Positions 5,798 to 48,340 of a DNA stretch of 64,000 nt are shown one piece after another. The notes under the pieces were generated by a model that saw nothing but the letters and a program-made list of their open reading frames with translations, ran no database searches and was not told the DNA's origin. The translations under genes and the position numbers were made by a program. The stretch's first letter is position 1. Every line of letters begins with the position of its first letter. This DNA comes from a virus. The stretch covers positions 87,142-151,141 of the IMG/VR virus record IMGVR_UViG_3300033153_009458. The stretch is one strand, 5' to 3'.

Positions 5798-6147
5798 AAG
5801 AAGATGCAAGGGATTTAACGCTTGTTGATGATATAACAGTTTGTACAGGTGAAAGAACAGATAAGCAATACTGCAATAAAAGCGGGTTGTTACTATCGAT
5901 TTACAACAAAAAAATATTCGTGATGAAATTAGGTGATAATAAAATATCTATTTCTTTTTCGGTTTTGTTGAATCATCAAGAATGCTCAAAAATATTATTA
6001 AATTTAGTTAAAAAATATGACATAGAACCCGAAGAAGATTTTATGTATCACAATGAAGCGGGTCATGTTTTTGGATTAGAAAATATTATGTCTTACGCAA
6101 GAACGGTCAATAAAATGCATACATTAAAAAAATATGACATCAATTAA
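5785..6147 (+). CDS. Hypothetical protein between gp44 and gp62
   Basis: ORF overlapping both neighbours by a few codons. Confidence 0.5.
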   Translation: MENIEEDARDLTLVDDITVCTGERTDKQYCNKSGLLLSIYNKKIFVMKLGDNKISISFSVLLNHQECSKILLNLVKKYDIEPEEDFMYHNEAGHVFGLENIMSYARTVNKMHTLKKYDIN

Positions 6148-6520
6148 AAAGTCACCGTTTGATTTTGTTAAGTCGATCAATAATAAAGAATACATCGAAG
6201 ATATAAAAGGTTTTTCCCCTTATATTGTGACTAATGCTTTGAGTGCTAATAAATTGAATGTCTTAGCAATCAACGCAATTAACAACATTGGTGCTGGTAA
6301 ACTATCAGATCGGGCTATCTATGATTATTATTATCATTTAGTCCGTCAAACAGATAAGTATTACCCGTATCCGAAATCTGTAAAAGATTCAAAAAATTTA
6401 GAATACATAATGAAGTATTTTCAACTGAACGAGCAAACCGCAAAGAGTTATCTAGAACTACTGGAGACAGAAGAAATTGAAGAAATTCGATCTTTTTATG
6501 AAGACCACGGCGTAAAATGA
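6134..6520 (+). CDS. 62: Clamp loader small subunit (gp62-like)
   Basis: SPFDFVKSIN, FSPYIVTNALS, YDYYY, AKSYLELL motifs. Confidence 0.8.
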   Translation: MTSIKKSPFDFVKSINNKEYIEDIKGFSPYIVTNALSANKLNVLAINAINNIGAGKLSDRAIYDYYYHLVRQTDKYYPYPKSVKDSKNLEYIMKYFQLNEQTAKSYLELLETEEIEEIRSFYEDHGVK

Positions 6521-7875: not shown

Positions 7876-8369
7876 AAGAGTTAAGGCAGATCGAAAGCAA
7901 AGAACTCACCAAAATTCGTGGAGCAATTTTAGACGCACAGGGCTATAAATGTGCTATTTGCGGTCGTCCATTAAATATAGAAATTGCTAACGTTGATCAT
8001 CAACACAAAACAAAAGCTGAAAAATTAGGTGTCAATGGTGCCGGGTTAATACGCGGTGTTTTGTGCCGAGCTTGTAATGTTTTCGAAGGGAAAATTTGGA
8101 ATAATTCAAAGAGGTACAGCGCATACGATAATTTGGTTCAGTGGTTACACGCACTTGCTAATTATCTAAATGATGAGCCGTACCCGTGGATTCATCCAAA
8201 TGAAAAACCAAGACCGCCGGACGTTTCAAAGAGAAATTACAATAAATTAGCTAAACTTTACGCTGAAACTAAAAGAAGAAAAAAGTTTCCCGGATACCCG
8301 AAGTACAAAAAACTGACTAAGGATCTCGAAAAACTTTTTTATGAATTTGAAATTGAACCGTATAATTAA
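7872..8369 (+). CDS. 49: Recombination endonuclease VII (gp49-like)
   Basis: CAIC...VDHQH...IRGVLCRACN..EG, YL, IHP. Confidence 0.9.
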   Translation: MKELRQIESKELTKIRGAILDAQGYKCAICGRPLNIEIANVDHQHKTKAEKLGVNGAGLIRGVLCRACNVFEGKIWNNSKRYSAYDNLVQWLHALANYLNDEPYPWIHPNEKPRPPDVSKRNYNKLAKLYAETKRRKKFPGYPKYKKLTKDLEKLFYEFEIEPYN

Positions 8370-9148
8370 TGAATTTTGTTGTTATGGTCGTTCTTCACCG
8401 ATTGCTTCATATAAATCGTCTAGCACCATTTCATAGGTTTCGGCCATAGCCATATAATGACCGGCTATATTATTTACAGCATTTTTAGCCGATTCATTCG
8501 CCCATGCAAGTTCTTTTTCCCATTTTTCAATGAGTTCTATGATTTTAGCTTCCATGTTGTTTCCTCTTTTAGCCAGTTTTACTTTTTCAGCCGAATCGTC
8601 ATTAAACACTGGATCATCATTGAGCATTTCTGAAACTTTTGCCCAATCTTTTGGCGTTTTGTATGTATCGGTCATTTAGTCTCCTTTTGGATCACAGATT
8701 GCTTTAACAAAATCGGCTTTTTCACCATTGATGTAAAAAAACGTGTCTACGTACGGCCAGCAATTCGGATTATCGTCAAGTGCTTTTTTGAAAACACCAG
8801 AGATGCCTTTGCGAGTGTTTGTACCTTCAATCGTTTTACCTTTCAAAACAATTTTGTATTTGCACAAACCGGTGGGGCGTGGAGTTTCAACATTCGGGCA
8901 AAAACTGAATTTTCCGAGAGTAGCCATTTGTCTCCTTATGTAGTTGTGAAAAAATGCAAGTAATAACCTTCTGTCACACTACACAAATGAAATGTCATTC
9001 TATCAACAAACTCTTCAAAGTCCACATCACGTGGAATCAAAATTTCAGAAATGAAATGACCACTTTTGCAAGGTTTTAAATACACATCAGAACCTTCTTC
9101 AAAAAGTCTTTTTGCCTTTCTTTTGTTAATTTTTAGCATTTCGTGTCC

Positions 9149-9215
9149 TTTGAAGGAGTTTTTTAACTCATTACAATTATAATATGCTCCTTCAAAACAA
9201 CTATGTCAAGGAAAA
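9149..9215 (-). promoter_or_regulatory. Early promoter repeat, copy A
   Basis: TTGACA-tagttgttttgaaggag-CATATT (17-bp spacer). Confidence 0.8.
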
Positions 9216-10237
9216 AACGTAATTATTTTTCACTTGTCCATCTTTTTTCATTTTCGGCGTATTCTTCAAACAGCCGGGTTACATCGTAGAAAGTTTGTTT
9301 TTCAACGACTAATAGAATTTGACCTTTTTCCAGTCCATCTAATTCTACATCAGGTTCAAAATGATGCGTATTTTTGAAGTCCAGCCAAGCATCATAATCG
9401 AATGTATATGGTATCGCTTCGGACCAAGGTAAGTCTTGAAGATCATCTTCGGCAATCAATTTATCAGTTTCAGAAATTTGTACGTACACAACATCTTCAG
9501 AACATTCAAAACCAGTGTCATCAACTGTAATTAAATAAGCTTTTGCCATTTTGTTTCCTACGTGTAATAACCAGTTAACAAATTTCTGAATGTAAACATG
9601 TTATCATTCAGTTCACGAACAACGTCTGAAAGTTCATCTTCAACAGATTCATAGCCGTTTGTTTTACCGAGTTTTAGTTGAACTAATAAACTATTAGCCA
9701 ATTTTTCCATCATATCGGCACGTAAAATAACGTCCGGGTGTCCGTTCAGTTCAGAAACTCTTTTTCCTTTTTCTTCCGGGGTTACTAAACAACCATGCAT
9801 TCGCATCAATGATTTTAACTCATCAACGATTTCCTGTTCAGTTACATCGTCTTTAAGGTCATCATAATTACTGCAAAAACTAGCATCGAATATATCACAA
9901 ATTGTTCCAAACGACAGTGCATCAAGTTCTTCTTCTGTGTATAAATCTACTGGCATTTTGTCTCCTTTGGGGACCATAGACCTTCGTTAAAACGTTTACG
10001 TGATGGTACAAACACCGGGAACCAAACAGGCCCGGTCTTACTGTAATGAACTTCGCATTTATTCCAATGGGTTTCGAACGTTCCATCTTCGTGAATTGTA
10101 TACGCCATTTTAAATTCGTAGTACGTGTCGTGATTCAATGCGATGTGCTGTGCTAACCGAGTTTCACCGGGATGTGGATTCATGATATACAAATTATGTT
10201 CTTTTTTCATAAATCGAATGAACTTACCGGGTGTCAT

Positions 10238-35370: not shown

Positions 35371-36138
35371 TTATCTTCGGTGGAACATTAAGCCTACACC
35401 AATTCGTTCAATGTCTTGATCCCATTGAAGTTGGTTATCTCCTTTCCCACGTTGGTAAGAATAAACTGTTTTTAAACTATTTGGAAAGATCCAATTCGGG
35501 TGTGAAAAACTTATATATCCACGATTAGAACCGCCATTCAGAGTCCACCAATTATCACCAAACTTGATAATTACAGTTCCATCGAAGTTACCCAAATCTC
35601 TAGCCATTTGTTCATGTTCATATAGAAGCACATTCCAAAACTTTCCACGCAAAACAAACGTTTCATTTTCCCATGTAGATTCAAAAAAAAATCGATCCCA
35701 CGATCTACTGAACAGCTCTGTTTGTCCGTTTGATTCGTGCCAATACCCGACATCGAACTGAAATCCGTTCCATTTGGGAGTCCGTATAAACACTTGTGGG
35801 TTGTAGTTTGTTTCCCTGAATGGTCTGGAGTTTTCTTTATTGTAAACATCCCACCAAGATTCCTGAGTAAATGCAACTACTAATTGCCAATCTTTATAAT
35901 TTAGTAATTCTGTTTTTACTGATATCTGAAATTTAGCTTCTGTGAATTCATCTATTACTTCACCTTGTTCATCGTAAATTATGTACTTACTGGCCGGTAC
36001 GAAATAATTATCGTAATGTGGAACTAACGAAATTGTAGGTTCTTCACCTTTGGCTTCATTAATCCACATAATACTTACCAAAATAGCTAATAACCCAAAA
36101 AATAGTATAATTAATCTAATTTTTATTTTTTCAGACAT
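35371..36138 (-). CDS. pldA: Outer-membrane phospholipase A (OMPLA)
   Basis: Signal peptide; EAKFQISVK, TQ.SWW..YN...SRPFRETNYNP, HESNG, SRSWDR; C-terminal IGVGLMF. Confidence 0.88.
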   Translation of the reverse strand: MSEKIKIRLIILFFGLLAILVSIMWINEAKGEEPTISLVPHYDNYFVPASKYIIYDEQGEVIDEFTEAKFQISVKTELLNYKDWQLVVAFTQESWWDVYNKENSRPFRETNYNPQVFIRTPKWNGFQFDVGYWHESNGQTELFSRSWDRFFFESTWENETFVLRGKFWNVLLYEHEQMARDLGNFDGTVIIKFGDNWWTLNGGSNRGYISFSHPNWIFPNSLKTVYSYQRGKGDNQLQWDQDIERIGVGLMFHRR

Positions 36139-37144
36139 TTATTTTCTCCCAATTAATTGACGTACTGTATAGATATTTTTCTGATCTTGAATCACTACCA
36201 ATATGATTTGTTGGTGTCTCATGTGTACAACAAAATTCTAAATTGCAATCCATAATCATTTCTATTTCACTAAAAAAAGTTAAAATCATTCTATCAAATG
36301 ATAAAAATTGTTTTATGTATTCTTTTGTTAAAGGATGCAGCAACATTTTAAAATTGATATCCTTAATTATGTCTTCTATTGTGTCAAAAGAATTATCAAA
36401 TGGTAATATTTCATGTAACAGCCCGCTTAAGCACGAAACATAATGATTATTATTTAAAACTATAGGTATACAACCACAAGCTAATCCTTCTCTTATAGTC
36501 ATGGATAAACATTCATCCAAAGAAAACAACCACAAAAATTTATGTTCATTATATACTTGCAAAAGATCTTTACGGCTTACCATTCCTTGATAGTCTATAA
36601 CATCTTTATGCTTTTCATAATACGATTCATCTACCATAGGCCCGTAAAATTTTATCTTTTTGTTTTGTTTTCTGATGAATGAAATGAAATTTGGTAAAAT
36701 TTTTCTTTCATTTAATCTTCCAATATATAAAATATCATCACTTCTATCTTCCCACGGTGTAATATTTTCCCAAATATTACTTGAAACAAATTCCATCCGT
36801 TTTCTTTTTTTTAATAATTGGGCGTGATGCGTGGTAAATGATAGATTGAAATCTAGCACCGAAGTTACACACTCAGGATCACCATGTGTAATTCCACCAG
36901 CTGCTAAATTGATCACAGGAAGATTAATACGATTTAAAGTTTCAAAATAATGACCATCATCGAAGTCGTTCAGTAATATCAAATCATACGGTGAAAAATC
37001 TACTGATTTAATTTCCATCCCGCATTGAGATGCATATATATCGATATTATCAATTCCTTTTGTTCGTTTTAATATTTCAATAAAAATTTGTCCGGTATAC
37101 TCAACACCATAACTAGTATCCCGGTTCCAAAAAAATACGTTCAT
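36131..37144 (-). CDS. Glycosyltransferase (GT-B, GT4-like)
   Basis: YIGRL..RK, YQG.VSR.DL..VY, ECLSMTIREGLACGCIP. Confidence 0.8.
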   Translation of the reverse strand: MNVFFWNRDTSYGVEYTGQIFIEILKRTKGIDNIDIYASQCGMEIKSVDFSPYDLILLNDFDDGHYFETLNRINLPVINLAAGGITHGDPECVTSVLDFNLSFTTHHAQLLKKRKRMEFVSSNIWENITPWEDRSDDILYIGRLNERKILPNFISFIRKQNKKIKFYGPMVDESYYEKHKDVIDYQGMVSRKDLLQVYNEHKFLWLFSLDECLSMTIREGLACGCIPIVLNNNHYVSCLSGLLHEILPFDNSFDTIEDIIKDINFKMLLHPLTKEYIKQFLSFDRMILTFFSEIEMIMDCNLEFCCTHETPTNHIGSDSRSEKYLYSTSINWEKINV

Positions 37145-38532: not shown

Positions 38533-39075
38533 TTATTTACCTGTTTTTATTTTTGTCAATACATGGTCTGGATTATCAACATCTTTCATAATTTCATCAT
38601 CATCTTCAAGATACTGTAGATAATGTTTTGCAATATCTATACTTGGCGGATTCCAATGTCTGAATTCTCTTAAACGTTTTGATAAATTTTTAAGAATGTC
38701 TATAGCATCTTTTGTAGCCAAATATCCTTGAAGTAATCTTGTTATTAACGCTACATTGTGTTTAATTTTAGAATCTTTAAATGTATTCAAATTCCAATTA
38801 TGCACTAAATAAATCCACGCATTTGAAAAATCACAAAATACTTGATCAATTTCTTCATACAGAATTAAATTTAATAAATTTTCTAAAGTACCTCTTACTT
38901 TATCTATATCTATTTCACTTAATTCTTCATCTTTTCCCAATAATTCAATATGGTTTCTTATAGCTTCATATGAATATATAAATCTATCAAAAGTATCGTG
39001 CCCTAATATGATTTCAGTTTCAACCCTATTGCAAAATAATCCATTAATTGTATCATAACATAATTTTTCATCCAT
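38533..39075 (-). CDS. Hypothetical helical protein of the radical-SAM operon
   Basis: ORF with SD AGGAG. Confidence 0.6.
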   Translation of the reverse strand: MDEKLCYDTINGLFCNRVETEIILGHDTFDRFIYSYEAIRNHIELLGKDEELSEIDIDKVRGTLENLLNLILYEEIDQVFCDFSNAWIYLVHNWNLNTFKDSKIKHNVALITRLLQGYLATKDAIDILKNLSKRLREFRHWNPPSIDIAKHYLQYLEDDDEIMKDVDNPDHVLTKIKTGK

Positions 39076-39081
39076 AATTCT

Positions 39082-40467
39082 TTATTCTCCTAATGTTTTT
39101 TTAATTTTTTTATATGAAACTGCTTGCTCTAAACTTAGAAAATTTACAAAAAATTCAAACAATCCGTGTTCAGATAAAAATTCTATTTGAGCTTTAACTT
39201 TTCCGAATTCAAGTAAACAGACTGAAGGATCGGGTAAAAAAGGATCACCTGTTGCTTCATATTGTGCACCCATACAACCACCTAAACATATTTCTTTAAT
39301 TCCACAACTGACACAATACGGCCAATTTGTGTGATCTGTTGTCATTGTTCCTATATAATATTCAACGTTTTTTGGTTCTATATCAATGATGTTTTCACCA
39401 TCATGTATAAATTTAAATCCATTGAAAGAATCATAAGATTGTCTATGACAAGGTGTAGCTGCTAAATCACTAAGCCGAAGTTGCATTGTTGTCTGTAAAC
39501 TACACCCAATTCCTCTACCAATTTTTCCTATGTTATTAAACATATTCATACGGCTAACATTACACGATGCTTTATCACCGTATCCACCAAATACGAAACC
39601 AAGGATAAAAGTTTCAGGATTTCTATTTAATTTATTGTACGCAAATTCTAATACTTTTTTATAAAAATCTATATATAAATTTACAGTTTTTTTTGTCCAT
39701 CCTTTATTTCTAACTTCTAATAGATATATATTATTCCAATTAATACCAAATTCTTCAAATTTTTCTTGAAACCACATAAAATTTTTGAAAGCATTTTCAA
39801 TATTATCGTAATGAATCATAGGATGAAAACCACATCCATATTGTTTTGAATATTCAAATATTTTATCGTAAAATTCATCTGTATAATAATCGTGCTGATC
39901 TAGTGTATTAATATAAGGTCGATTAACATGATCCATATATTTACCATCAAAAGATGCACTAAGTCCAAAATGTATACCAGCTTCTTTAGCTCTTTTACCA
40001 ATATTTACTACTTTTTCTGTTATAGTATTACTACGTATCCACCCAAAATTTGTTGGTACTACAATGTCTGGTTTTTTATCTGTATTTTTATAGAAATCAA
40101 ATACCATATCAAAAATTTTAAATGTTGATGGTTGTAAAAATATTTCACCCCCAAAAAGTTCAAATACAGCTGGATAATAATTATTCTTACTTAAAAAATT
40201 AAACATAATTTCTGCATTTTTTAGAAGAGTTTTGGTATCAGCCAATTCTGATGGGTGTAATTCTTTTCCATGCCCACTGCGATCATTATAATAACAGTAA
40301 GTACAATTTAGATTGCACCTAGGTTTTAATTGAAATTCTAAATTATCGTATAATTTATGACTGTGGTCTAAGTCACCTTCGAATCTAGGAGTTTTCCAAT
40401 CTTTAAAATGAGTATTCTCTAAATACGTCCACAATAATTCTTTTTGTTCATCTTGGTGTGTTTTCAT
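39082..40467 (-). CDS. Radical SAM/SPASM-domain protein (peptide-maturase-like)
   Basis: CNLNCTYC, FGGE, PTN, SFDG; GCS...TPCHR and CVSC...ICLGGCMG...VC. Confidence 0.9.
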   Translation of the reverse strand: MKTHQDEQKELLWTYLENTHFKDWKTPRFEGDLDHSHKLYDNLEFQLKPRCNLNCTYCYYNDRSGHGKELHPSELADTKTLLKNAEIMFNFLSKNNYYPAVFELFGGEIFLQPSTFKIFDMVFDFYKNTDKKPDIVVPTNFGWIRSNTITEKVVNIGKRAKEAGIHFGLSASFDGKYMDHVNRPYINTLDQHDYYTDEFYDKIFEYSKQYGCGFHPMIHYDNIENAFKNFMWFQEKFEEFGINWNNIYLLEVRNKGWTKKTVNLYIDFYKKVLEFAYNKLNRNPETFILGFVFGGYGDKASCNVSRMNMFNNIGKIGRGIGCSLQTTMQLRLSDLAATPCHRQSYDSFNGFKFIHDGENIIDIEPKNVEYYIGTMTTDHTNWPYCVSCGIKEICLGGCMGAQYEATGDPFLPDPSVCLLEFGKVKAQIEFLSEHGLFEFFVNFLSLEQAVSYKKIKKTLGE

Positions 40468-41871
40468 TTAATTTATTTTCCTTTCTGTTATATATCGTTT
40501 CAAAAATGACTCTACCATTCCATTTCCAAATAATTTGAAATACGAATTAAAATTTAATTGCATAGAACCTAAAAACATTTGTGCATCAACATTACAAGAA
40601 TGCCTAGAATTACAAAAAAAGGCCAATACTTCTGCCATTTCAGTTTCTTTATAACATTTTGAAACTTGACCAGCTTTTGCTAATAATTTTATCATTGCAA
40701 CAGAAAGTGATAAACGATTTTTTGGAAAATCATGAAAACTTCGCATAAAATAAAGATATTCTGTCAATTTTTTATCTGTCAATTCATCAAATTTAATTGT
40801 AAGATTTTTTTCTGCCATTTTACTTCTTCCACTAACAATACTATCCACATTTTTTATGCTTTGTGTTCTATTGTTTTTACCTTGTTGAAGAGTTTCTTCT
40901 TGTAATTTTTCATTGTTTAAAAAAAATGTTGCATGGCAAGGATGCAAATAATCACTAAATCCAAATTGTGAATCACCAGCCGAGCATGTAAACATAGAAG
41001 GTTTTGAAAAATATTGTGGAGAAAGTAACAACAATCCATAAAAAGCTTGATAATAATTACTACCCGGTGATATATACTTAAATCTAGTATTTTGTTGAAA
41101 TTCGAGCGTTTTTTCATATAATTCGTGAAAACAAATTCCATCTAGTTGTGTATATTCATCAGGGCAAACAATAGTTGGATCAACATTTCTTGAAAAAAAC
41201 ATTGCGTGTTTTGTATTTACAGATTCTATTCGTTCAAAAACTTCATCAAAAAATTCATAATATTTTAATATTTCACCATCTTCAAGCATTTTAGGAAATT
41301 GTGTTCTACTCATTGTAGGTTTAAAATGACAGTGTACAACTGTGAAAGGTACATTTTCTATATTGTTAACACCTTCAACAAATTTAACCATATTTTTTAT
41401 AATTGTTTCAGTAGCACCAATTTTTCTATTTTCATCTGTTACCCACTTTGGACCATCAAGAGAAAATTGTACGTGTAATTCAATTTTTCTATCGTCAATT
41501 TTTGGAAAATGTTCTACAAAATTTATTAACGCATTTGTGTGTGATAAAAAATTTGAAGAAAATCCTATTTGTTTTAACTTAGGAAATTTAGACAAAGCTT
41601 TTCTGTAAAATGGTTTAAAATATTTAATTGTTAAACTAGGTTCAGTTCCCCAATGTGTAAAATATTCTAAATCTTCACCGTATAAATCATATAATCTGTC
41701 TATGATTGGATCAACTTCTTGAATTTTTTTAATAACATCTTCATGCATTTGATCTATTGCCGGACTATTTTTTAAAATATGACAATATGTACAATCTAAA
41801 TTACATTTGGCTGAAGAAAATAGTTCAGCGGCAGCCGGTTTATAAAATTTAGAAACGCTAGATAGAAGCAT
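40468..41871 (-). CDS. Radical SAM protein with SPASM/twitch-like C-terminus
   Basis: CNLDCTYC, WGTEP, SSN, SLDG..DENR; TCSAG...PCH and further C-terminal Cys. Confidence 0.85.
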   Translation of the reverse strand: MLLSSVSKFYKPAAAELFSSAKCNLDCTYCHILKNSPAIDQMHEDVIKKIQEVDPIIDRLYDLYGEDLEYFTHWGTEPSLTIKYFKPFYRKALSKFPKLKQIGFSSNFLSHTNALINFVEHFPKIDDRKIELHVQFSLDGPKWVTDENRKIGATETIIKNMVKFVEGVNNIENVPFTVVHCHFKPTMSRTQFPKMLEDGEILKYYEFFDEVFERIESVNTKHAMFFSRNVDPTIVCPDEYTQLDGICFHELYEKTLEFQQNTRFKYISPGSNYYQAFYGLLLLSPQYFSKPSMFTCSAGDSQFGFSDYLHPCHATFFLNNEKLQEETLQQGKNNRTQSIKNVDSIVSGRSKMAEKNLTIKFDELTDKKLTEYLYFMRSFHDFPKNRLSLSVAMIKLLAKAGQVSKCYKETEMAEVLAFFCNSRHSCNVDAQMFLGSMQLNFNSYFKLFGNGMVESFLKRYITERKIN

Positions 41872-41895: not shown

Positions 41896-42300
41896 TTATG
41901 TTGGTGGTATATTCCATATTGGATTTACAGTTACATATGCACCCGGTGTTTGCGGCGTATAATCAACACCTTTATGACCTGAGTAATAAGATCCTTCGTC
42001 TGAATAATCAGAACTTGGATAATTGATACTGTATTTAGTGTTATCATCTGATCCATAATGAGTACCTAATATGCCATCTTTATGACTTGGATAATAAGTG
42101 CCTTCGTGTCCATCATAATGGGTTTTATGTTCATTATCATCGTGGCCCGGATAATGTGTATCATATTGAGTTACTTGATCAGCTAAATTAGCTAAATTTT
42201 CATCTACATAACTTACATTATCTTGTATTTCGGTTATTTGTGCTGTTTTTATTGATGTACTTGTTGTGATTGTAGGATCTTCTACCCATGTAAATGACAT
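41896..42300 (-). CDS. Tetrad-repeat His/Tyr-rich protein B (putative radical-SAM substrate)
   Basis: Leader FTW..ITEIQDNV; 4-residue-phased DTHY PGHD ... repeats; SD AGGAG. Confidence 0.7.
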   Translation of the reverse strand: MSFTWVEDPTITTSTSIKTAQITEIQDNVSYVDENLANLADQVTQYDTHYPGHDDNEHKTHYDGHEGTYYPSHKDGILGTHYGSDDNTKYSINYPSSDYSDEGSYYSGHKGVDYTPQTPGAYVTVNPIWNIPPT

Positions 42301-42312
42301 TTATTTCTCCTA

Positions 42313-42837
42313 TTAGGCTTTGAGATACGGATTGTGATTGCCACCTTTAATAGTCACATCATGACCATCTAACGCACCTGGATAATTTCCCGGATAATCA
42401 CCTGGATAATGTGTACTTTTGTGTAAACTCCACTGACTACCATCATGAGTAGGACAATGAGCAGCTTTTTGAACAGATAGCACATTACTCACATAACTTC
42501 CTTTATGCGTTGTTTCTAACGCCGGATTATGGCTTCCATAATGTGTTATATAATGAAATTCATCCCATCCAGTATCAAGAGCAGCTTTATGGGTAATTTC
42601 ATTACCACTTAAATGTGCTCGGCAATAATTTTGATCATCTAAATAATCTGTAGCTAACCTAAGTTCTTCAACATCTAATTCTTCTACGTTTTCACCTTCA
42701 CCGCTAATATCCGTCCAAGACCAATCAGTAGTATCCAATTTTGCAGGATTTGTTGCAACGTCACTTATGTTGACTCGTATTTCCGCGTGTTCTTCATTTT
42801 CAATATCACCTGTTACAGGTAGCCATTCAAAACTCAT
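42313..42837 (-). CDS. Tetrad-repeat His-rich protein A (putative radical-SAM substrate)
   Basis: Duplicated leader motif; 11 of 12 core His residues in one mod-4 register; SD AAGGA. Confidence 0.7.
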   Translation of the reverse strand: MSFEWLPVTGDIENEEHAEIRVNISDVATNPAKLDTTDWSWTDISGEGENVEELDVEELRLATDYLDDQNYCRAHLSGNEITHKAALDTGWDEFHYITHYGSHNPALETTHKGSYVSNVLSVQKAAHCPTHDGSQWSLHKSTHYPGDYPGNYPGALDGHDVTIKGGNHNPYLKA

Positions 42838-42864: not shown

Positions 42865-42872
42865 TATTTATA
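42865..42872 (-). promoter_or_regulatory. Possible late promoter of the repeat-protein/radical-SAM operon
   Basis: TATAAATA about 28 bp upstream of ATG 42837; overlaps the upstream stop codon. Confidence 0.5.
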
Positions 42873-43494
42873 ATCTTAAAACATTACTAAAACACTCAAC
42901 TTTCTTAATATCCCGTTTAGAATTACTTTCTAATGCTTCACCTATGACAAGTTTTTGATCATCTGTTTTTTTAATTTTTCGTGCAAAACCTTCACCAGCC
43001 GGAACAAGTTTATCCCATTTTTTAACAGAACCTTTTACTAATACTGGTACTCGGCCAATCATCGTAATTCCTGGTCCATCGCATCCACGGTTCATTAAAT
43101 GTGCTGGTTTAGTGGTAATAATACCAAAAACATCTGGATCAAGTTCTTTATCAGAAATTTTCAATTCAGAACCTTCTTCTTTGTTTCGACTAGCTAACAT
43201 TCCGGGTTCCCATATTCCTGTTAATGTGTATCGTTCCGCTAAATCTGAATATAGAGCCGCTGTTGCTGTTCCTGTCATTTCATTACAAGCAAAATCACCA
43301 GACGCATCACGTTTAATAATTTGATCTACTGTATTGATAGATGTAGCACCGTGTACATCTTTTGTTCCCATTGTTGCATCCAAATTCTCATGATCTAATA
43401 AATTAGTTTCAATACTAGCAATATTCGGTGTTGTATTATCTGTTTTATGCTTTTTTTTACGTAAAGTAAAACCACTTCTAATTATTGTTGCCAT
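42868..43494 (-). CDS. Tail-fibre-associated protein with peptidase-G2-like intramolecular chaperone domain
   Basis: YSDLAERY, PAHLMN, GRVPVLVKG.VKK.D.LV, VIGEALE. Confidence 0.7.
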   Translation of the reverse strand: MATIIRSGFTLRKKKHKTDNTTPNIASIETNLLDHENLDATMGTKDVHGATSINTVDQIIKRDASGDFACNEMTGTATAALYSDLAERYTLTGIWEPGMLASRNKEEGSELKISDKELDPDVFGIITTKPAHLMNRGCDGPGITMIGRVPVLVKGSVKKWDKLVPAGEGFARKIKKTDDQKLVIGEALESNSKRDIKKVECFSNVLRL

Positions 43495-43501
43495 TTTTAT
43501 C

Positions 43502-46500
43502 CTATACTATTCTTATCCATCCAGTTAATGCAGCATATAAAACCGCAACATCCCACTGAGTTGTTAATGCTAATGATGAAGCCGACCCATTAATAGTTTC
43601 AGAACTATCAGGATCAAGTGTAAATGTTCCAGATGCTCCTATATTTACAAATATAAAAGTTCGTTCTACAACAGACGCCACTGGTAATAAAGTTAATGTT
43701 AATCCACTACCATTATCACCTGTAACAAAATGATCATCAATATCGAGAGTATCAGCTGATACATAATTAGTTTCTTTCGCTGTATGGTATCCAGTAACGG
43801 CTTGATGTTGTGCTAAAATAAGTTGATTATTTTCAAGTGAATTATCTACAGCACCATAATATTCTTCAAAAATTAAACTTTCACTAACACCCAAACCGTA
43901 TAACATTTTTACTGAATAGTGATCATTTTCTTCAAAATCAGTACCAATAAATAATCTTCCGTTAGTATCAGAAGTAAGTTGTAAACTAACACCGTCTTTT
44001 GTATACGATCCATTATTCGGAATAGTGATAATATCATTAGGTGATCCACCACTTCCACTGTCTGTATATATTTCGAACATTTTCTTAATGGACGCAATAA
44101 CCTTATTATCGTAACCGTACATAACACCAAAGCTGTTTATTGTACCTGTTGCACCCCACGTAAAACGAAGATGCAAATCTACAAACCCACCCGTTACAAG
44201 AACAGGTTCATCGTATTTTGGAATTTTTATCCACGTAGAAGGTGATTCATCTATTGAATATTCAACAACCATTCTTGGTTCTTCAACATATTCAGCGTGT
44301 ACTTGAAATCTATAATCGGTTGTTGGTCTTCTTGCTTCCCAAACAACACCGCCAGCATCTTCGATAACAACATCTTCTTCAAGACTATTACTGATCTCAC
44401 GATGTAGATTTCTTATTTCGTACGGTGATAATGTTACACTATAAACTCTGACTTGATCGACATGACCATTTAGAGCTGATGAAGTATTTTTATAAGATCC
44501 GATAATCATTTGATTTACAGTTGAATTACTTAAATCTAATGAGGCTGGTACTGATATTGTTTCAGACGTAACTTCTACACCATCTAAATACATTTTTGCT
44601 GTTGGTCCAGATCCATCGTACGTTGCAACTAAACTATGAAATTTATCAGATATATCTGTAAAAGCATGTACATCAGAAAAACCTGTTAAGCCAAATGTCA
44701 AGTTTCCACTTACTAAAGCTAAATAAAAATCACCGGCTGTTCCAACATAAGGACCAATATCAAATAATCCATCATCCCCTGAAGTTACATTTGCTTGAAA
44801 TGCTAAAGAAACAGAAAAATTTGTCACCGCCGCACCTAAAGCTGTTGGGAATGTAGTTCCGGTATTAATTTCACCGGTTCCCGGTAAAAACATTGATTTT
44901 CCAACATGACCTATATTTACTTGTATTAATTCTGATGATGCTGTTCCATCATAACTATTTGATGTTTCGTCTACGACCGTTGTTCCTGTTACATCATCCA
45001 TTGTATAATGAGCTTCTAAACTCGATGTTGATACTTTATCTGTCCAACTTGGTTCTGATCCTGATGAAGTACCCGCTTCTATACATTCCCAAATCCATGA
45101 ATCTGCAAGAATTTCATCTTCTAATGCCCATGCTTGTATTCCCCACGTATCATCAGTTTCAGATATAATTTGTTTTTGTATGTACTCTGTTGCGATACCG
45201 TTATAAACACTATCATTAAATGATGCATCACCAGTAACAGTTCCCGGTTGAGAAAAAGTATCATAATGCATTCTTAAAAAAGACGATGATTCTAACAAAC
45301 CACTATATTGCATATCTTCTTGCGAAGCCATAACAGGACCATCTTCACCACCTGTTGAAGCAGTAATAACCATATAATAATTTGATCCGATCAATCCAAT
45401 GTATCGACCAACTTCTACACCTGATGGTAAATTAGTTACTTTACCCGGATAAGAAGCTTCTAAAGATAAGTAAACTTTATCACCAATTGCTAACGAAGTA
45501 TTCGTAACCACGTAACCTAAAGTTCCTGTACTATCGGCACCGGTACCTGTATCAGTTCCCATATCAACATAACCTTGAGACTGTACGATACCATTATCAC
45601 CCACTGTTGGCCCTTCAGTACATACACCAATAAAATATTCTTTTGCTGTATTGTCTACAATAGCTCTATCATATTCAAGCCCAGAATTGTCGTATACATA
45701 AACGACATCATATGCATCAACATTACTGTTAAAATGAGCAAATTGATCAATGGCTGTATCGACGTATCGATCACCTAAAATATTAATTAAAATTGTTCCA
45801 CCAGCTGCAACGGTACCTATTGTGACAACTGTTGCCACTTCTATATTATTGGTGTTGCGTTTTGTAGTAGTTAATAAACCACTTGTTGTATACGATAGAT
45901 AAGCTTTGTCACCTACTACCGCTGTTGTGCCTTCTATACTCGTTGTATCGTACGCAACTAAACCGTGTGAAATCATCACACCAGCTGTTGACGTAATACC
46001 AAAAGCTATACCTACAACGGCACTAGCTGGATTATCATCAAAATCTAATTTTGCTTTTGTGTAAGTTGAGTCTGATTTTCTGTATACAAATTCATAATCG
46101 GCTACTGTTCCTTCGAATGTTGCGTTTTCATCTACTGCAAAATTTTCTAAAGAAAGATTTTGACCGATTCTTAAGAATATATAACCAGTTCCAACCGCAC
46201 CTTTAGCGATTACATAACCAACTTCGACGTTATCAGCCGTGTCTTTTGTATTAGATATTGCACCAGCTGAATCTTTTGATAGGTAAAGTTTTTCACCTAC
46301 AGTTACAGTTGAGGCAGCCGCTTGAGTTACGTCATCCCAAATTTTTGTTGCATCTTGTGTGTCGTATGTAACGAAACCACCACTTAAAACACCACCATAA
46401 TCCGTATCAGAAACGTCATACGCTATACCAACAACATCAGCTGTTAGTGGTGTACTATTTAAATTTTGTGCTTGTTTATAGTCACCATCAGATGCGTGAT

Positions 46501-48340
46501 AAACTAAATCGTAATCAGAAACACCAGAATAACTCGGATCTTCATCAAACATTTGTCCACGGTACGTGAACGTGTGATCAGTATTTCCCCTTACGTAAAT
46601 ACCAGCTTTCATCATTTCATTTTGAATGTTATCATGAGAAAAAGCACCCTCATCATGATCATCTAAAGCCGCCGCTGAACCACCAACAAAAGAAATTAAA
46701 ATAGTTCCGGTTACTGAATCACCAGTAGCAATAACCATACCAACACGAGTATTATCTGTTGTCTGTGGAACATTCGCAAATTGTCCTTCATTGTATTTTG
46801 ACAAATACAGAATATCGCCTGGATTCACTGTGGTTGGTGCTGTACCCGCACCATCTTCGATTAGAGTAGTATCATAATGAACGTATCCACTCGATAAAAC
46901 GTAACCCGTTTTTCCAGATCCATTTGTTCTGTGTGAAACACCAATAGCTCTTTCAAGTATAGTATCAACTGCTTCATTCAATGCTTTACCATAAGTACCG
47001 TCTGTCTTCATGTAGATTAACGATATTTCATTATCACTCCATGATTCAGCGGCATTAAAAACAGCATTTTCGTCAAAGTATTGCCCACGATATTCGAAAT
47101 CTGTTACACCTTGCGATTGATTATAAGTCCAAAGACCAGCTTTTTGCATTGCTGTAATTATATCAGGATGCGCTAATGCAAAATCGTTATGATCATCTAT
47201 ATTACCCGCACCTGTTGCAAGCCCTAATAAAAATTTACCACTTCCAAGTGAAATACCAATTCGAACTTTCATATCACCTTCAAACACACCTTCGTAATCA
47301 GCGTGATATCCCCAATCAATACCACTTCCACCTGAACCACCGTTATCAGCTACACCGTTTGTTCCATCAACAAAAGCATCACCTGTTTTATAATAAACTG
47401 ATGGGTTATCCCATGTTGTTGGTTTAGTCGAGCCGTGTGTATCACCACCATTAATAGCCCGCCAAATACGGTCATTAGTTACCATGTAAATATCAGCTAC
47501 ATGAGTTGTATTAGCAATCCATTTGATAAAATCTCTTTCAATTTTACCAGCTGTGGTATCTGACAAATAAAGATACGTTCCTTCAGCGTATAATTCAGCA
47601 TCAGTAGATAAATCGTTTTGCCCCCCTGATCCGGTTGTATCTACTACACCAGAAGTTATAACAATATTATTACCAAATACACCGTCCCTTGATACATCAA
47701 CAATACCGATAACTGCTTCTTGTTCTTTGTCGGCATCATCGGCTAAAGCTGGATCAAAAAATGTAGTCTTGTAATAAACAAGGTCCATATTTTGAACAGT
47801 TGTTGGATAGTCTAATGCTGCATCTTTAATAACATTTTGACCACGGTAAATAAAATCATTATCATCAAATCCTAAAACACCGTAATCTTTTAATACTTGA
47901 GTAGCGTCTAAAACGCCTTGTGAAATGACTGTTCTTACTGAAGTTGGATCGATGTGATTATAAGAATCTGTTTCATCCAGAATAACTCTGAATGTACATA
48001 TAACTCTTCTTCCAGTATCGTCACCATCCCAAATTGTATCACCAGCACCAATATATGTACCGACTGAAACAGGTTGTTGAATGATTGCTTTACCAGCTGT
48101 ATCCGATCCTGTTGGTGCTGAAGCGTATAAAACATAATTTCCGGGTGATAATGATGGTACAATAATCACTTCTTCTTCTGCTATGTAATAACCCCTTCCA
48201 TTACCGCCAATATTAACTAGTCCTTCATAAACTGTAAGTCTGTGATCAGCGGCACCCGAATAGGTAGAGGTATCCGCAATCGCCTGTTTAAATGAAATAA
48301 ACCCGGCTGATTGCGAAGCAAGATAAAATTTTTCGGCCAT
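43502..48340 (-). CDS. Large tail-fibre/adhesin-like virion protein with repeated beta-domains and a LamG-like lectin domain
   Basis: About five repeats of the form D.VY..Y..A..VG(I/V)..SG.V..GD..YLS..G; AHYTMDD..GTT..D and GHVDQVRVY...LS..EI. Confidence 0.75.
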   Translation of the reverse strand: MAEKFYLASQSAGFISFKQAIADTSTYSGAADHRLTVYEGLVNIGGNGRGYYIAEEEVIIVPSLSPGNYVLYASAPTGSDTAGKAIIQQPVSVGTYIGAGDTIWDGDDTGRRVICTFRVILDETDSYNHIDPTSVRTVISQGVLDATQVLKDYGVLGFDDNDFIYRGQNVIKDAALDYPTTVQNMDLVYYKTTFFDPALADDADKEQEAVIGIVDVSRDGVFGNNIVITSGVVDTTGSGGQNDLSTDAELYAEGTYLYLSDTTAGKIERDFIKWIANTTHVADIYMVTNDRIWRAINGGDTHGSTKPTTWDNPSVYYKTGDAFVDGTNGVADNGGSGGSGIDWGYHADYEGVFEGDMKVRIGISLGSGKFLLGLATGAGNIDDHNDFALAHPDIITAMQKAGLWTYNQSQGVTDFEYRGQYFDENAVFNAAESWSDNEISLIYMKTDGTYGKALNEAVDTILERAIGVSHRTNGSGKTGYVLSSGYVHYDTTLIEDGAGTAPTTVNPGDILYLSKYNEGQFANVPQTTDNTRVGMVIATGDSVTGTILISFVGGSAAALDDHDEGAFSHDNIQNEMMKAGIYVRGNTDHTFTYRGQMFDEDPSYSGVSDYDLVYHASDGDYKQAQNLNSTPLTADVVGIAYDVSDTDYGGVLSGGFVTYDTQDATKIWDDVTQAAASTVTVGEKLYLSKDSAGAISNTKDTADNVEVGYVIAKGAVGTGYIFLRIGQNLSLENFAVDENATFEGTVADYEFVYRKSDSTYTKAKLDFDDNPASAVVGIAFGITSTAGVMISHGLVAYDTTSIEGTTAVVGDKAYLSYTTSGLLTTTKRNTNNIEVATVVTIGTVAAGGTILINILGDRYVDTAIDQFAHFNSNVDAYDVVYVYDNSGLEYDRAIVDNTAKEYFIGVCTEGPTVGDNGIVQSQGYVDMGTDTGTGADSTGTLGYVVTNTSLAIGDKVYLSLEASYPGKVTNLPSGVEVGRYIGLIGSNYYMVITASTGGEDGPVMASQEDMQYSGLLESSSFLRMHYDTFSQPGTVTGDASFNDSVYNGIATEYIQKQIISETDDTWGIQAWALEDEILADSWIWECIEAGTSSGSEPSWTDKVSTSSLEAHYTMDDVTGTTVVDETSNSYDGTASSELIQVNIGHVGKSMFLPGTGEINTGTTFPTALGAAVTNFSVSLAFQANVTSGDDGLFDIGPYVGTAGDFYLALVSGNLTFGLTGFSDVHAFTDISDKFHSLVATYDGSGPTAKMYLDGVEVTSETISVPASLDLSNSTVNQMIIGSYKNTSSALNGHVDQVRVYSVTLSPYEIRNLHREISNSLEEDVVIEDAGGVVWEARRPTTDYRFQVHAEYVEEPRMVVEYSIDESPSTWIKIPKYDEPVLVTGGFVDLHLRFTWGATGTINSFGVMYGYDNKVIASIKKMFEIYTDSGSGGSPNDIITIPNNGSYTKDGVSLQLTSDTNGRLFIGTDFEENDHYSVKMLYGLGVSESLIFEEYYGAVDNSLENNQLILAQHQAVTGYHTAKETNYVSADTLDIDDHFVTGDNGSGLTLTLLPVASVVERTFIFVNIGASGTFTLDPDSSETINGSASSLALTTQWDVAVLYAALTGWIRIV

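Follow-up and report, generated by a model that had tools for sequence, protein, structure and literature searches.

The window analyzed here, a stretch of 64,000 nucleotides corresponding to positions 87,142 to 151,141 of the 151-kb IMG/VR virus record IMGVR_UViG_3300033153_009458, contains two adjacent genes for proteins with long runs of four-residue (tetrad) repeats, A and B, and genes of two radical S-adenosylmethionine (radical-SAM) enzymes. All features with window coordinates given below are located on the minus strand. Protein A, the 'long' tetrad-repeat form (174 amino acids (aa); 42313–42837), begins with M-S-F-E-W and a helix, followed by a second, W-S-W copy with its helix, Cys72 and the tetrads, and aligns with the long-form proteins of the loci L003, L005, L006 and L007. 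Protein B, the 'short' form (134 aa; 41896–42300), has a single M-S-F-T-W module with a helix; A contains two Cys residues and B none. The tetrad cores comprise aa 71–174 of A (42316–42627) and aa 38–127 of B (41920–42189). The co-oriented block is arranged in the order A, B, radical-SAM enzyme 1 (40468–41871), radical-SAM enzyme 2 (39082–40467), an accessory protein of 180 aa (38533–39075), two unknown proteins and a GT1/GT4-like glycosyltransferase, and the gaps between consecutive genes are 12, 24, 0, 6 and 1 nt. A and B belong to a large family which has no name so far and no match in the tested family libraries: in Pfam, NCBIfam and PHROGs no credible family was found for A, B or 73 further members, apart from four isolated single-member matches with E values of 0.002–0.008.

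Of the 26 in-phase tetrads making up the core of A, 11 have His as the fourth residue. An earlier note on this DNA had claimed a strong four-residue register in both proteins, and a recount agrees with its numbers: core His residues of A are found at positions 75, 83, 95, 99, 103, 111, 127, 131, 139, 143 and 159, all of them 3 mod 4, while in B 7 of 8 His are at 1 mod 4 and 10 of 13 core Tyr at the next position, 2 mod 4. The residue preceding His was described there as mostly Thr, Ser, Gly or Ala; this holds for 9 of 11 His in A, for 7 of 8 in B and hence for 16 of 19 together. Protein A also has His17 in its N-terminal part and one off-phase residue, His168. Phase was called by a cyclic four-state hidden Markov model (HMM) with a slip state, the path of which passed through both cores without slips, giving one unbroken phase of 104 residues in A and 90 in B.

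Spectral power was compared with that of 20,000 composition-matched shuffles per protein. At period 4, p values for His were 1e-4 (A) and 5e-5 (B), and for the group T/S/G/A protein A exceeded every shuffle and B gave p = 5e-5; at periods 3, 5, 6 and 7 no signal was detected in A or B. The shuffle check proposed in the note was significant (p ≤ 1e-4) in each of four proteins, A and B included. Autocorrelation calculated with BLOSUM scores has peaks at lags 4, 8, 12 and so on up to lag 28 and negative values at lags 2, 6 and 10; its rise at all multiples of four up to lag 28 indicates long-range phase coherence. The richness of A and B in a few residue types could be taken to mean that the rhythm arose merely by chance or from the composition of two proteins of low complexity, but this is refuted by the shuffle tests, by the phase kept in hundreds of homologues and by the number of repeat residues called by the HMM in the family, about 14,300 (with 33 phase slips) against 297 in the shuffled control, and its probability is negligible.

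Homologues of A were reached first via the enzymes and then via a profile. A search with A alone among proteins of similar length in a set of 5.8 billion proteins returned only the self-match, and a back-translated scan for A in viral contigs gave no match. The family profile A3, built from seven short-form proteins with B as the first, was searched against 1.84 billion cluster representatives (50% identity) and matched at least 500 of them at E ≤ 1e-3 and 124 at E ≤ 1e-10. The tetrad consensus is [D/N/Y]-[S/T/G/A]-[T/G/S/A]-[Y/H/V/D]. According to the HMM, the first slot is represented by Asp (22%), Asn (21%) and Tyr (17%), with Cys at 7%, the second by S/T/G/A, the third by T/G/S/A, and the fourth by Tyr (21%), His (18%), Val (13%) and Asp (13%). 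Among the 150 listed representatives, mean autocorrelation z values are +2.6 to +3.6 at lags 4, 8, 12 and 16; lags 3 and 5 give values near 0, and lags 2 and 6 negative ones of about −1.3 to −1.9. Values at lags 8 and 16 are slightly above those at lags 4 and 12, which would fit a structural unit of eight residues, i.e., two tetrads.

The phase is also kept during divergence. It is retained in 15 cassette proteins and in the 150 distant representatives, and 94% of aligned core columns in 427 pairs of relatives are in the same phase. Among 1102 core gaps, 605 have a length which is a multiple of four, with 330 gaps of length 4, 188 of 8, 33 of 12 and 31 of 16, and low numbers of off-register lengths (25 of length 7, 19 of 9, 6 of 11 and 2 of 15). 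Gaps in non-core parts follow an ordinary geometric distribution, decaying normally from 217 at length 1 to 14 at length 4. The contrast between core and non-core gaps is clear in these alignments, in which the counts are indicative only, as the aligner prefers in-phase solutions and the pairs are non-independent. Both checks on homologues proposed in the note, on mod-4 phasing and on indel length, came out in its favor, and its view that selection acts on periodic spacing is well supported by the two results. In some distant clades the phase slips regularly, for example, with 11-residue units in L084 (3879–4382) and with a 3-residue step every ~24–30 residues in L063 (2500–3039); accordingly, the spacing rule may differ among subfamilies.

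The abundance of His in A and B, with 11 and 7 in-phase residues, respectively, had suggested a metal-binding ladder, in which His at every fourth position would face the axis of an oligomer and bind metal ions, similarly to the tip needle of the T4 long tail fibre, the spacing being selected for this reason. Slots 1 and 4 often contain Asp, Asn and Tyr, which can likewise act as metal ligands, and His-coordinated iron is present in T4 gp37 and in spike tips. However, the iron sites of fibres that we know of are of the type H-x-H, not H-x-x-x-H, the two enzymes are not explained by such a ladder, and family-wide His occupies only 18–22% of slot 4, where Tyr, Val, Asp or Asn substitute for it. 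Many members, L008 and P0249 among them, are nearly free of His and nevertheless keep the phase. Therefore, a His ladder is a lineage trait which does not explain the rhythm, and the many His residues of this phage are at most a lineage-specific filling of the fourth slot; as a conserved feature of the family the ladder was not upheld, and as the cause of the register it is very unlikely.

Members of the family are modular proteins of 130–470 aa. The N-terminal module has an invariant M-x-F-x-W start, of the form M-[A/G/S]-F-x-W in most of the listed representatives, and an amphipathic helix I.A....E[IL]R.N[LV]D; the 'short' forms contain one copy and the 'long' forms two, sometimes with a LamG lectin domain between the copies. 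The module would be recognition-like. It is usually followed by one Cys and then by roughly 10–85 tetrads in a single phase, with repeat cores reaching ~340 residues. At the C-terminus of A (42313–42330), B (41896–41925) and several relatives, the motif N-P-[aromatic/aliphatic] was found in the variants N-P-Y-L, N-P-I-W, N-P-M-I and N-P-A-F; the repeat region may be capped by it at the C-terminal end.

Enzyme 1 (467 aa) contains the motif CxxxCxxC at aa 23–30, with C23, C27 and C30 invariant, and three further invariant Cys, which suggest a twitch-like single auxiliary cluster; its closest solved relative is anSME 4k36 (E 7e-7). Enzyme 2 (461 aa), a radical-SAM/SPASM protein, contains CxxxCxxC at aa 51–58, with C51, C55 and C58 invariant, and the full seven-Cys SPASM pattern, represented by the invariant C322, C340, C385, C388, C394, C398 and C417. 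It has the features of the radical-SAM superfamily and of the SPASM subgroup, with a score for the SPASM model of 22.5 bits, just below the cut-off of 27; it aligned with PapB over its full length (50.9 bits, cut-off 340) and matched CteB 5wgg with E 7e-11. Both enzymes match only maturases modifying peptides or proteins, namely, PapB, anSME, YhhB, GggB, DynA, QhpD and CteB, and are far below every curated cut-off of the named NCBIfam maturase families. At least 144 relatives of enzyme 2, nearly all metagenomic, were found at E ≤ 1e-20. In a set of 185,579 species genomes, only a metagenome-assembled genome (MAG) of Colwellbacteria and a MAG of Peptococcaceae encode true relatives of enzyme 2; in GenBank phages there was neither a DNA match to the block nor a protein match to enzyme 2 at E ≤ 1e-10.

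Two homologues of enzyme 1 have unusual genes. In L005 (2558–5008) the homologue is 816 aa long and carries an intein inside the cluster-binding motif CxxxCxxC; the intein, which has an Intein_splicing match and a faint LAGLIDADG match, begins with C-L-G-K-G-T and ends with H-N before Cys. Inteins favor conserved, essential sites. In L061 (4784–5989) the relative is divided among three open reading frames (ORFs), and the frame contains three TAG codons and one TAA codon; the phage may have recoded TAG, or the gene may have decayed.

The accessory protein, the gene of which directly follows that of enzyme 2, contains a conserved N-W-N-x-N motif. Its AlphaFold2 (AF2) model is a confident all-helical bundle with a predicted local distance difference test (pLDDT) value of 92, for which no PDB fold match (Foldseek, E ≤ 0.001) and no family match were found. 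A predicted complex of enzyme 2 with the accessory protein and B lent no support and allowed no verdict, and is evidence neither way.

IMG/VR was scanned with an alignment of enzyme 2, which yielded 73 viral loci. Genes of enzyme 1 were found in 66 of them and at least one tetrad ORF in 65. All 95 tetrad ORFs are located on the strand of the enzymes, no farther than 3 kb away; 71 are upstream of the enzyme span, 12 are downstream and 12 overlap it. In the window, the tetrad detector identified only A and B among 167 ORFs. The same cassette, which encodes a long and a short tetrad protein, both enzymes and a protein of 150–200 aa, is present in every inspected locus (L003, L005, L006, L007, L008, L009, L034 and L035). 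The tetrad genes, upstream of the enzymes in the majority of loci, are downstream of them in L003 and L005, with adjacency retained. The linkage holds to an enzyme identity of 27–28%, where a single tetrad protein of 410–470 aa is encoded, with up to 344 tetrad residues and, in some cases, Cys-rich in phase.

This linkage bears on a purely structural explanation, according to which the tetrads alone encode the geometry of a fibre or turn spiral, and the enzymes act elsewhere and are linked by synteny. Fibre modules are present in relatives, other phage fibres with strict unmodified short repeats exist, collagen-like G-x-y fibre genes are located in L003 and L005, and covariation yields no partner slot, all of which are in keeping with that explanation. 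However, the co-location of tetrad and enzyme genes persists in 65 of 73 loci, for all 95 tetrad ORFs and down to an enzyme identity of 27%, adjacency is preserved while gene order varies, and the enzymes resemble only peptide maturases. We consider geometry without processing quite unlikely.

The fibre character of the family is indicated by its fusions, and in some relatives the C-terminal module is a self-cleaving one, of the Peptidase_S74 chaperone or Hint type. Protein P0271 of cassette L034 has a C-terminal Peptidase_S74 domain directly after the tetrads (41.4 bits, cut-off 22); such domains fold trimeric fibre shafts and then cleave themselves off. Hint domains follow the tetrads in P0250 of L008 and in P0264 (weak matches), and LamG domains are located between two N-terminal modules in P0158, L049, L054 and L056. 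Protein P0249, with x-x-V-G tetrads, has a weak likeness to the triple beta-helix of T4 gp5 (E 0.006, below the cut-off).

The neighboring genes are of a similar kind, and the operon often follows tail-fibre genes directly. Among ten diverse loci, the gene located upstream of the cassette matches tail-fibre or tail-spike PHROGs in four (L038, L040, L065 and L100), and in a fifth it matches the family of the 208-aa protein encoded upstream of A in the window (42868–43494). The latter has a C-terminus of the tail-fibre type (phrog_22593, 3e-14; phrog_19602 'tail fiber', 2e-5) and is related to the neighbor in L034 bearing a Peptidase_G2-like autoproteolytic chaperone segment. A fibre protein of 1612 aa with Laminin_G_3 (43502–48340; E 7.5e-13) and a tail tube gene are also found upstream of the block in the window. 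Collagen-like G-Y-S-G-x-S fibre genes, with period 3, are located just upstream of the cassette in L003 (457–1875 and 4193–5044) and L005 (2–655). A T4-late-promoter-like motif, TATAAATA (42865–42872), is positioned ~28 nt upstream of the ATG of A; as 11 copies are present in the window against 11.9 expected by chance, it is weak evidence for late transcription.

These data lead us to propose, with moderate confidence, that A and B are fibre-like virion proteins, the tetrads of which are iteratively processed by the radical-SAM pair. The tetrad region would form the shaft of an appendage of the virion, which would be fibrous and probably trimeric, and A and B would be components of the virion. 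The two enzymes would dock on the N-terminal module, using it as a handle, before or during assembly, and would walk along the tetrads, modifying each repeat once, possibly by a cross-link or by some other C–H functionalization at the aromatic or Asx slot. The register would then be constrained doubly, by fibre geometry and by the spacing of the enzyme, and such a double constraint would explain why most surviving indels comprise whole tetrads. Fibre geometry combined with repeat-by-repeat radical-SAM processing is the most likely cause of the register constraint.

Two of the three mechanisms offered in the earlier note bear on this proposal. Spacing read by a processive enzyme gains most, in that two radical-SAM genes are co-located with the repeats in essentially every locus. 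The periodic geometry of a fibre or solenoid receives indirect support from the Peptidase_S74, Hint and LamG fusions and from the tail-fibre neighbors, the fold itself being without a confident model (the Atlas model of A has a pLDDT of 0.42).

A number of observations weigh against the fibre proposal. Contact of the enzymes with A and B and modification of the tetrads are both inferred, and slot covariation showed only weak shifts, without a clear donor–acceptor pair. The accessory protein, as a plain helical bundle, is not the classical winged-helix recognition element of ribosomally made peptides with post-translational modifications (RiPPs), and it was detected, with a length of ~170 aa, in about half of the loci (35 of 73). 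In the AF2 monomer model, B forms a long helix of low confidence (pLDDT 66, predicted TM-score (pTM) 0.32), which neither fits nor excludes a fibre. No S74, Hint or LamG module was found in A and B themselves, and the fibre argument accordingly rests on relatives and neighbors. Finally, the cassette of L009 (2051–8954), which is directly downstream of TatC and TatA and encodes three tetrad proteins of 91, 306 and 266 aa, is located on a 157-kb contig from a Parcubacteria-type bin with cellular genes (RecG, pyruvate:ferredoxin oxidoreductase), and some metagenomic relatives are on long contigs of such bins, with cellular genes and TatA/TatC; the cassette is therefore not strictly a trait of virions.

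The last observation, together with the architecture of the cassette, leads to the main rival explanation, an effector similar to that of the bacterial antiphage system HXS. According to a 2026 paper on this system, HxsA, with five His-x-Ser repeats, is matured by two radical-SAM enzymes with a small partner and blocks entry of phage DNA (PMC13128918). All repeats are needed for function, and HxsA has a peptidoglycan-binding domain and is exported to the periplasm (PMC13128918). By analogy, A and B would be RiPP-like non-virion proteins, the N-terminal leader of which is cut off and the modified tetrad core of which is a released or periplasmic effector, for example, one that keeps the DNA of competing phages from entering or that acts on other cells. 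The likeness, a striking one, is of architecture only and comprises the same gene set, i.e., two adjacent radical-SAM genes, a small partner and a protein, not a small peptide, with short His-containing repeats. The leader-like N-terminus, the occurrence of the system in contigs of bacteria of the Candidate Phyla Radiation (CPR) beside TatA/TatC and the presence of a related enzyme in L004 in a classic RiPP setting, with F-G-[N/D] repeats and YcaO-like genes, also speak for an effector. However, the conserved cassette lacks a signal peptide, a protease and an exporter; cores are as long as 340 residues, members carry S74 chaperone, Hint and LamG fusions, and the cassette is located among tail-fibre genes, with the late-promoter-like motif in the window. 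HXS has five repeats of period 3, whereas here there are 20–85 tetrads of period 4, fibre fusions and a tail-module context. We regard the effector explanation as unlikely, although it would also be of interest, as a phage-borne HXS analogue for phage–phage competition.

Direct membership in HXS was rejected. For HxsB (TIGR03978; cut-off 370) enzyme 1 scored 27.5 bits and enzyme 2 17.9 bits, and HxsC (TIGR03977) was matched by distant relatives only, with no more than 18–20 bits; for the two models together, scores were 18–28 bits against cut-offs of 268–370. Proteins A and B differ from HxsA in having period 4 and not 3, no Pfam or NCBIfam domain and an M-S-F-x-W N-terminus without a hydrophobic signal. 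The accessory protein has no NCBIfam match, which rules out HxsD.

The CXXX-repeat system (peptide TIGR04114, maturase TIGR04115, partner TIGR04116) is similar in having a substrate of period 4, a radical-SAM maturase and a small partner, and Cys, present at 7% in tetrad slot 1, is abundant in phase in distant members such as L105. As a lead only, a neighbor cluster in the ESM Atlas, 83% viral, carries PF27846 (tSAM_targ_Cxxx_rpt) on 52% of its members, with a score of 0.79. Membership was rejected, since A and B, with two Cys and none, do not have Cys at every fourth position, TIGR04114 and TIGR04116 have no match in the genome at E ≤ 10, and TIGR04115 reached 19.4 bits (19–29 bits including relatives) against a cut-off of 350. 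A search for publications on the chemistry of the CXXX-repeat system found none.

In PapB, which forms six Cys-x3-Asp thioethers, in TvgB, acting on TVGG repeats (PMC9062424), and in the three-residue cyclophane enzymes XyeB, GrrM, FxsB, YhhB and HaaB/HtkB (PMC11499958), the likeness consists in one radical-SAM/SPASM enzyme acting repeatedly along a motif. PapB is the best named match for enzyme 2, and His and Tyr are known cyclophane donors. The system described here differs in having two enzymes, modular substrates of 130–470 aa, no recognizable RiPP recognition element and a tetrad without the Cys or the fixed acceptor residue which those enzymes need. A ranthipeptide of the PapB type was rejected because of the absence of Cys from B and the PapB score given above, and the triceptide maturase families XyeB, GrrM, FxsB and YhhB because of scores of 13–29 bits against cut-offs of 310–450; many tetrads permit [H/Y]-x-[S/T/A], but covariation gave no support for a triceptide cross-link.

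Among fibres, those chaperoned by S74, i.e., the trimeric endosialidase and T5 L-shaped types, are approached by P0271, where S74 directly follows the tetrads; A and B differ in having no chaperone domain. The small-residue slots recall Gly of collagen, and a dedicated modifying enzyme recalls the dependence of collagen on prolyl hydroxylase, but the period here is 4, not 3 or 8.

If the proposal of an enzymatically processed fibre is true, a virus applies radical-SAM protein chemistry to its own structural proteins, in a fibrous repeat of period 4, which is apart from collagen (period 3) and from known beta-helical fibre repeats. There is a fair chance that, among radical-SAM systems acting on repeat proteins, this is a new kind of modified virion fibre. 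It is possible, though doubtful, that A and B represent a new class of phage fibre with a four-residue repeat, the fold or stability of which depends on radical-SAM cross-links laid down repeat by repeat, and with it the first virion structural protein modified by radical-SAM enzymes. We know of no described precedent for radical-SAM modification of a virion fibre or another structural protein of a virus, and no relevant publication on radical-SAM fibres or RiPP systems of phages was found in literature searches. Large uncultured phages appear to carry the system widely, and CPR bacteria appear either to have taken it from them or to have been its source. The large family and the easily recognized substrate make it a clean system for the discovery of radical-SAM cross-linking chemistry, and very stable, programmable protein rods are a possible yield.

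The GT1/GT4-like glycosyltransferase (36131–37144; Glycos_transf_1 24 bits, cut-off 26.4) is optional in the block: L003 (pairwise E 3e-9) and L005 share it, L006 and L007 do not. Tetrads of the form N-x-T/S are common in those phages, and glycosylation of the repeats is therefore conceivable. The N-x-S/T glycosylation sequon, considered in view of the frequent Asn in slot 1, the frequent Thr or Ser in slot 3 and the glycosyltransferase of some cassettes, was not adopted as the main explanation, since A and B contain few sequons and the glycosyltransferase is missing from the two loci named.

In L004, which is on the same contig as L088, the regions 6107–6451 and 8289–9299 belong to a different, classic-looking RiPP cluster on a viral contig. 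A relative of enzyme 2 with 30% identity, seemingly split under translation table 11, is encoded there near a protein of 114 aa with F-G-[N/D] repeats of period 3 and two YcaO-like proteins.

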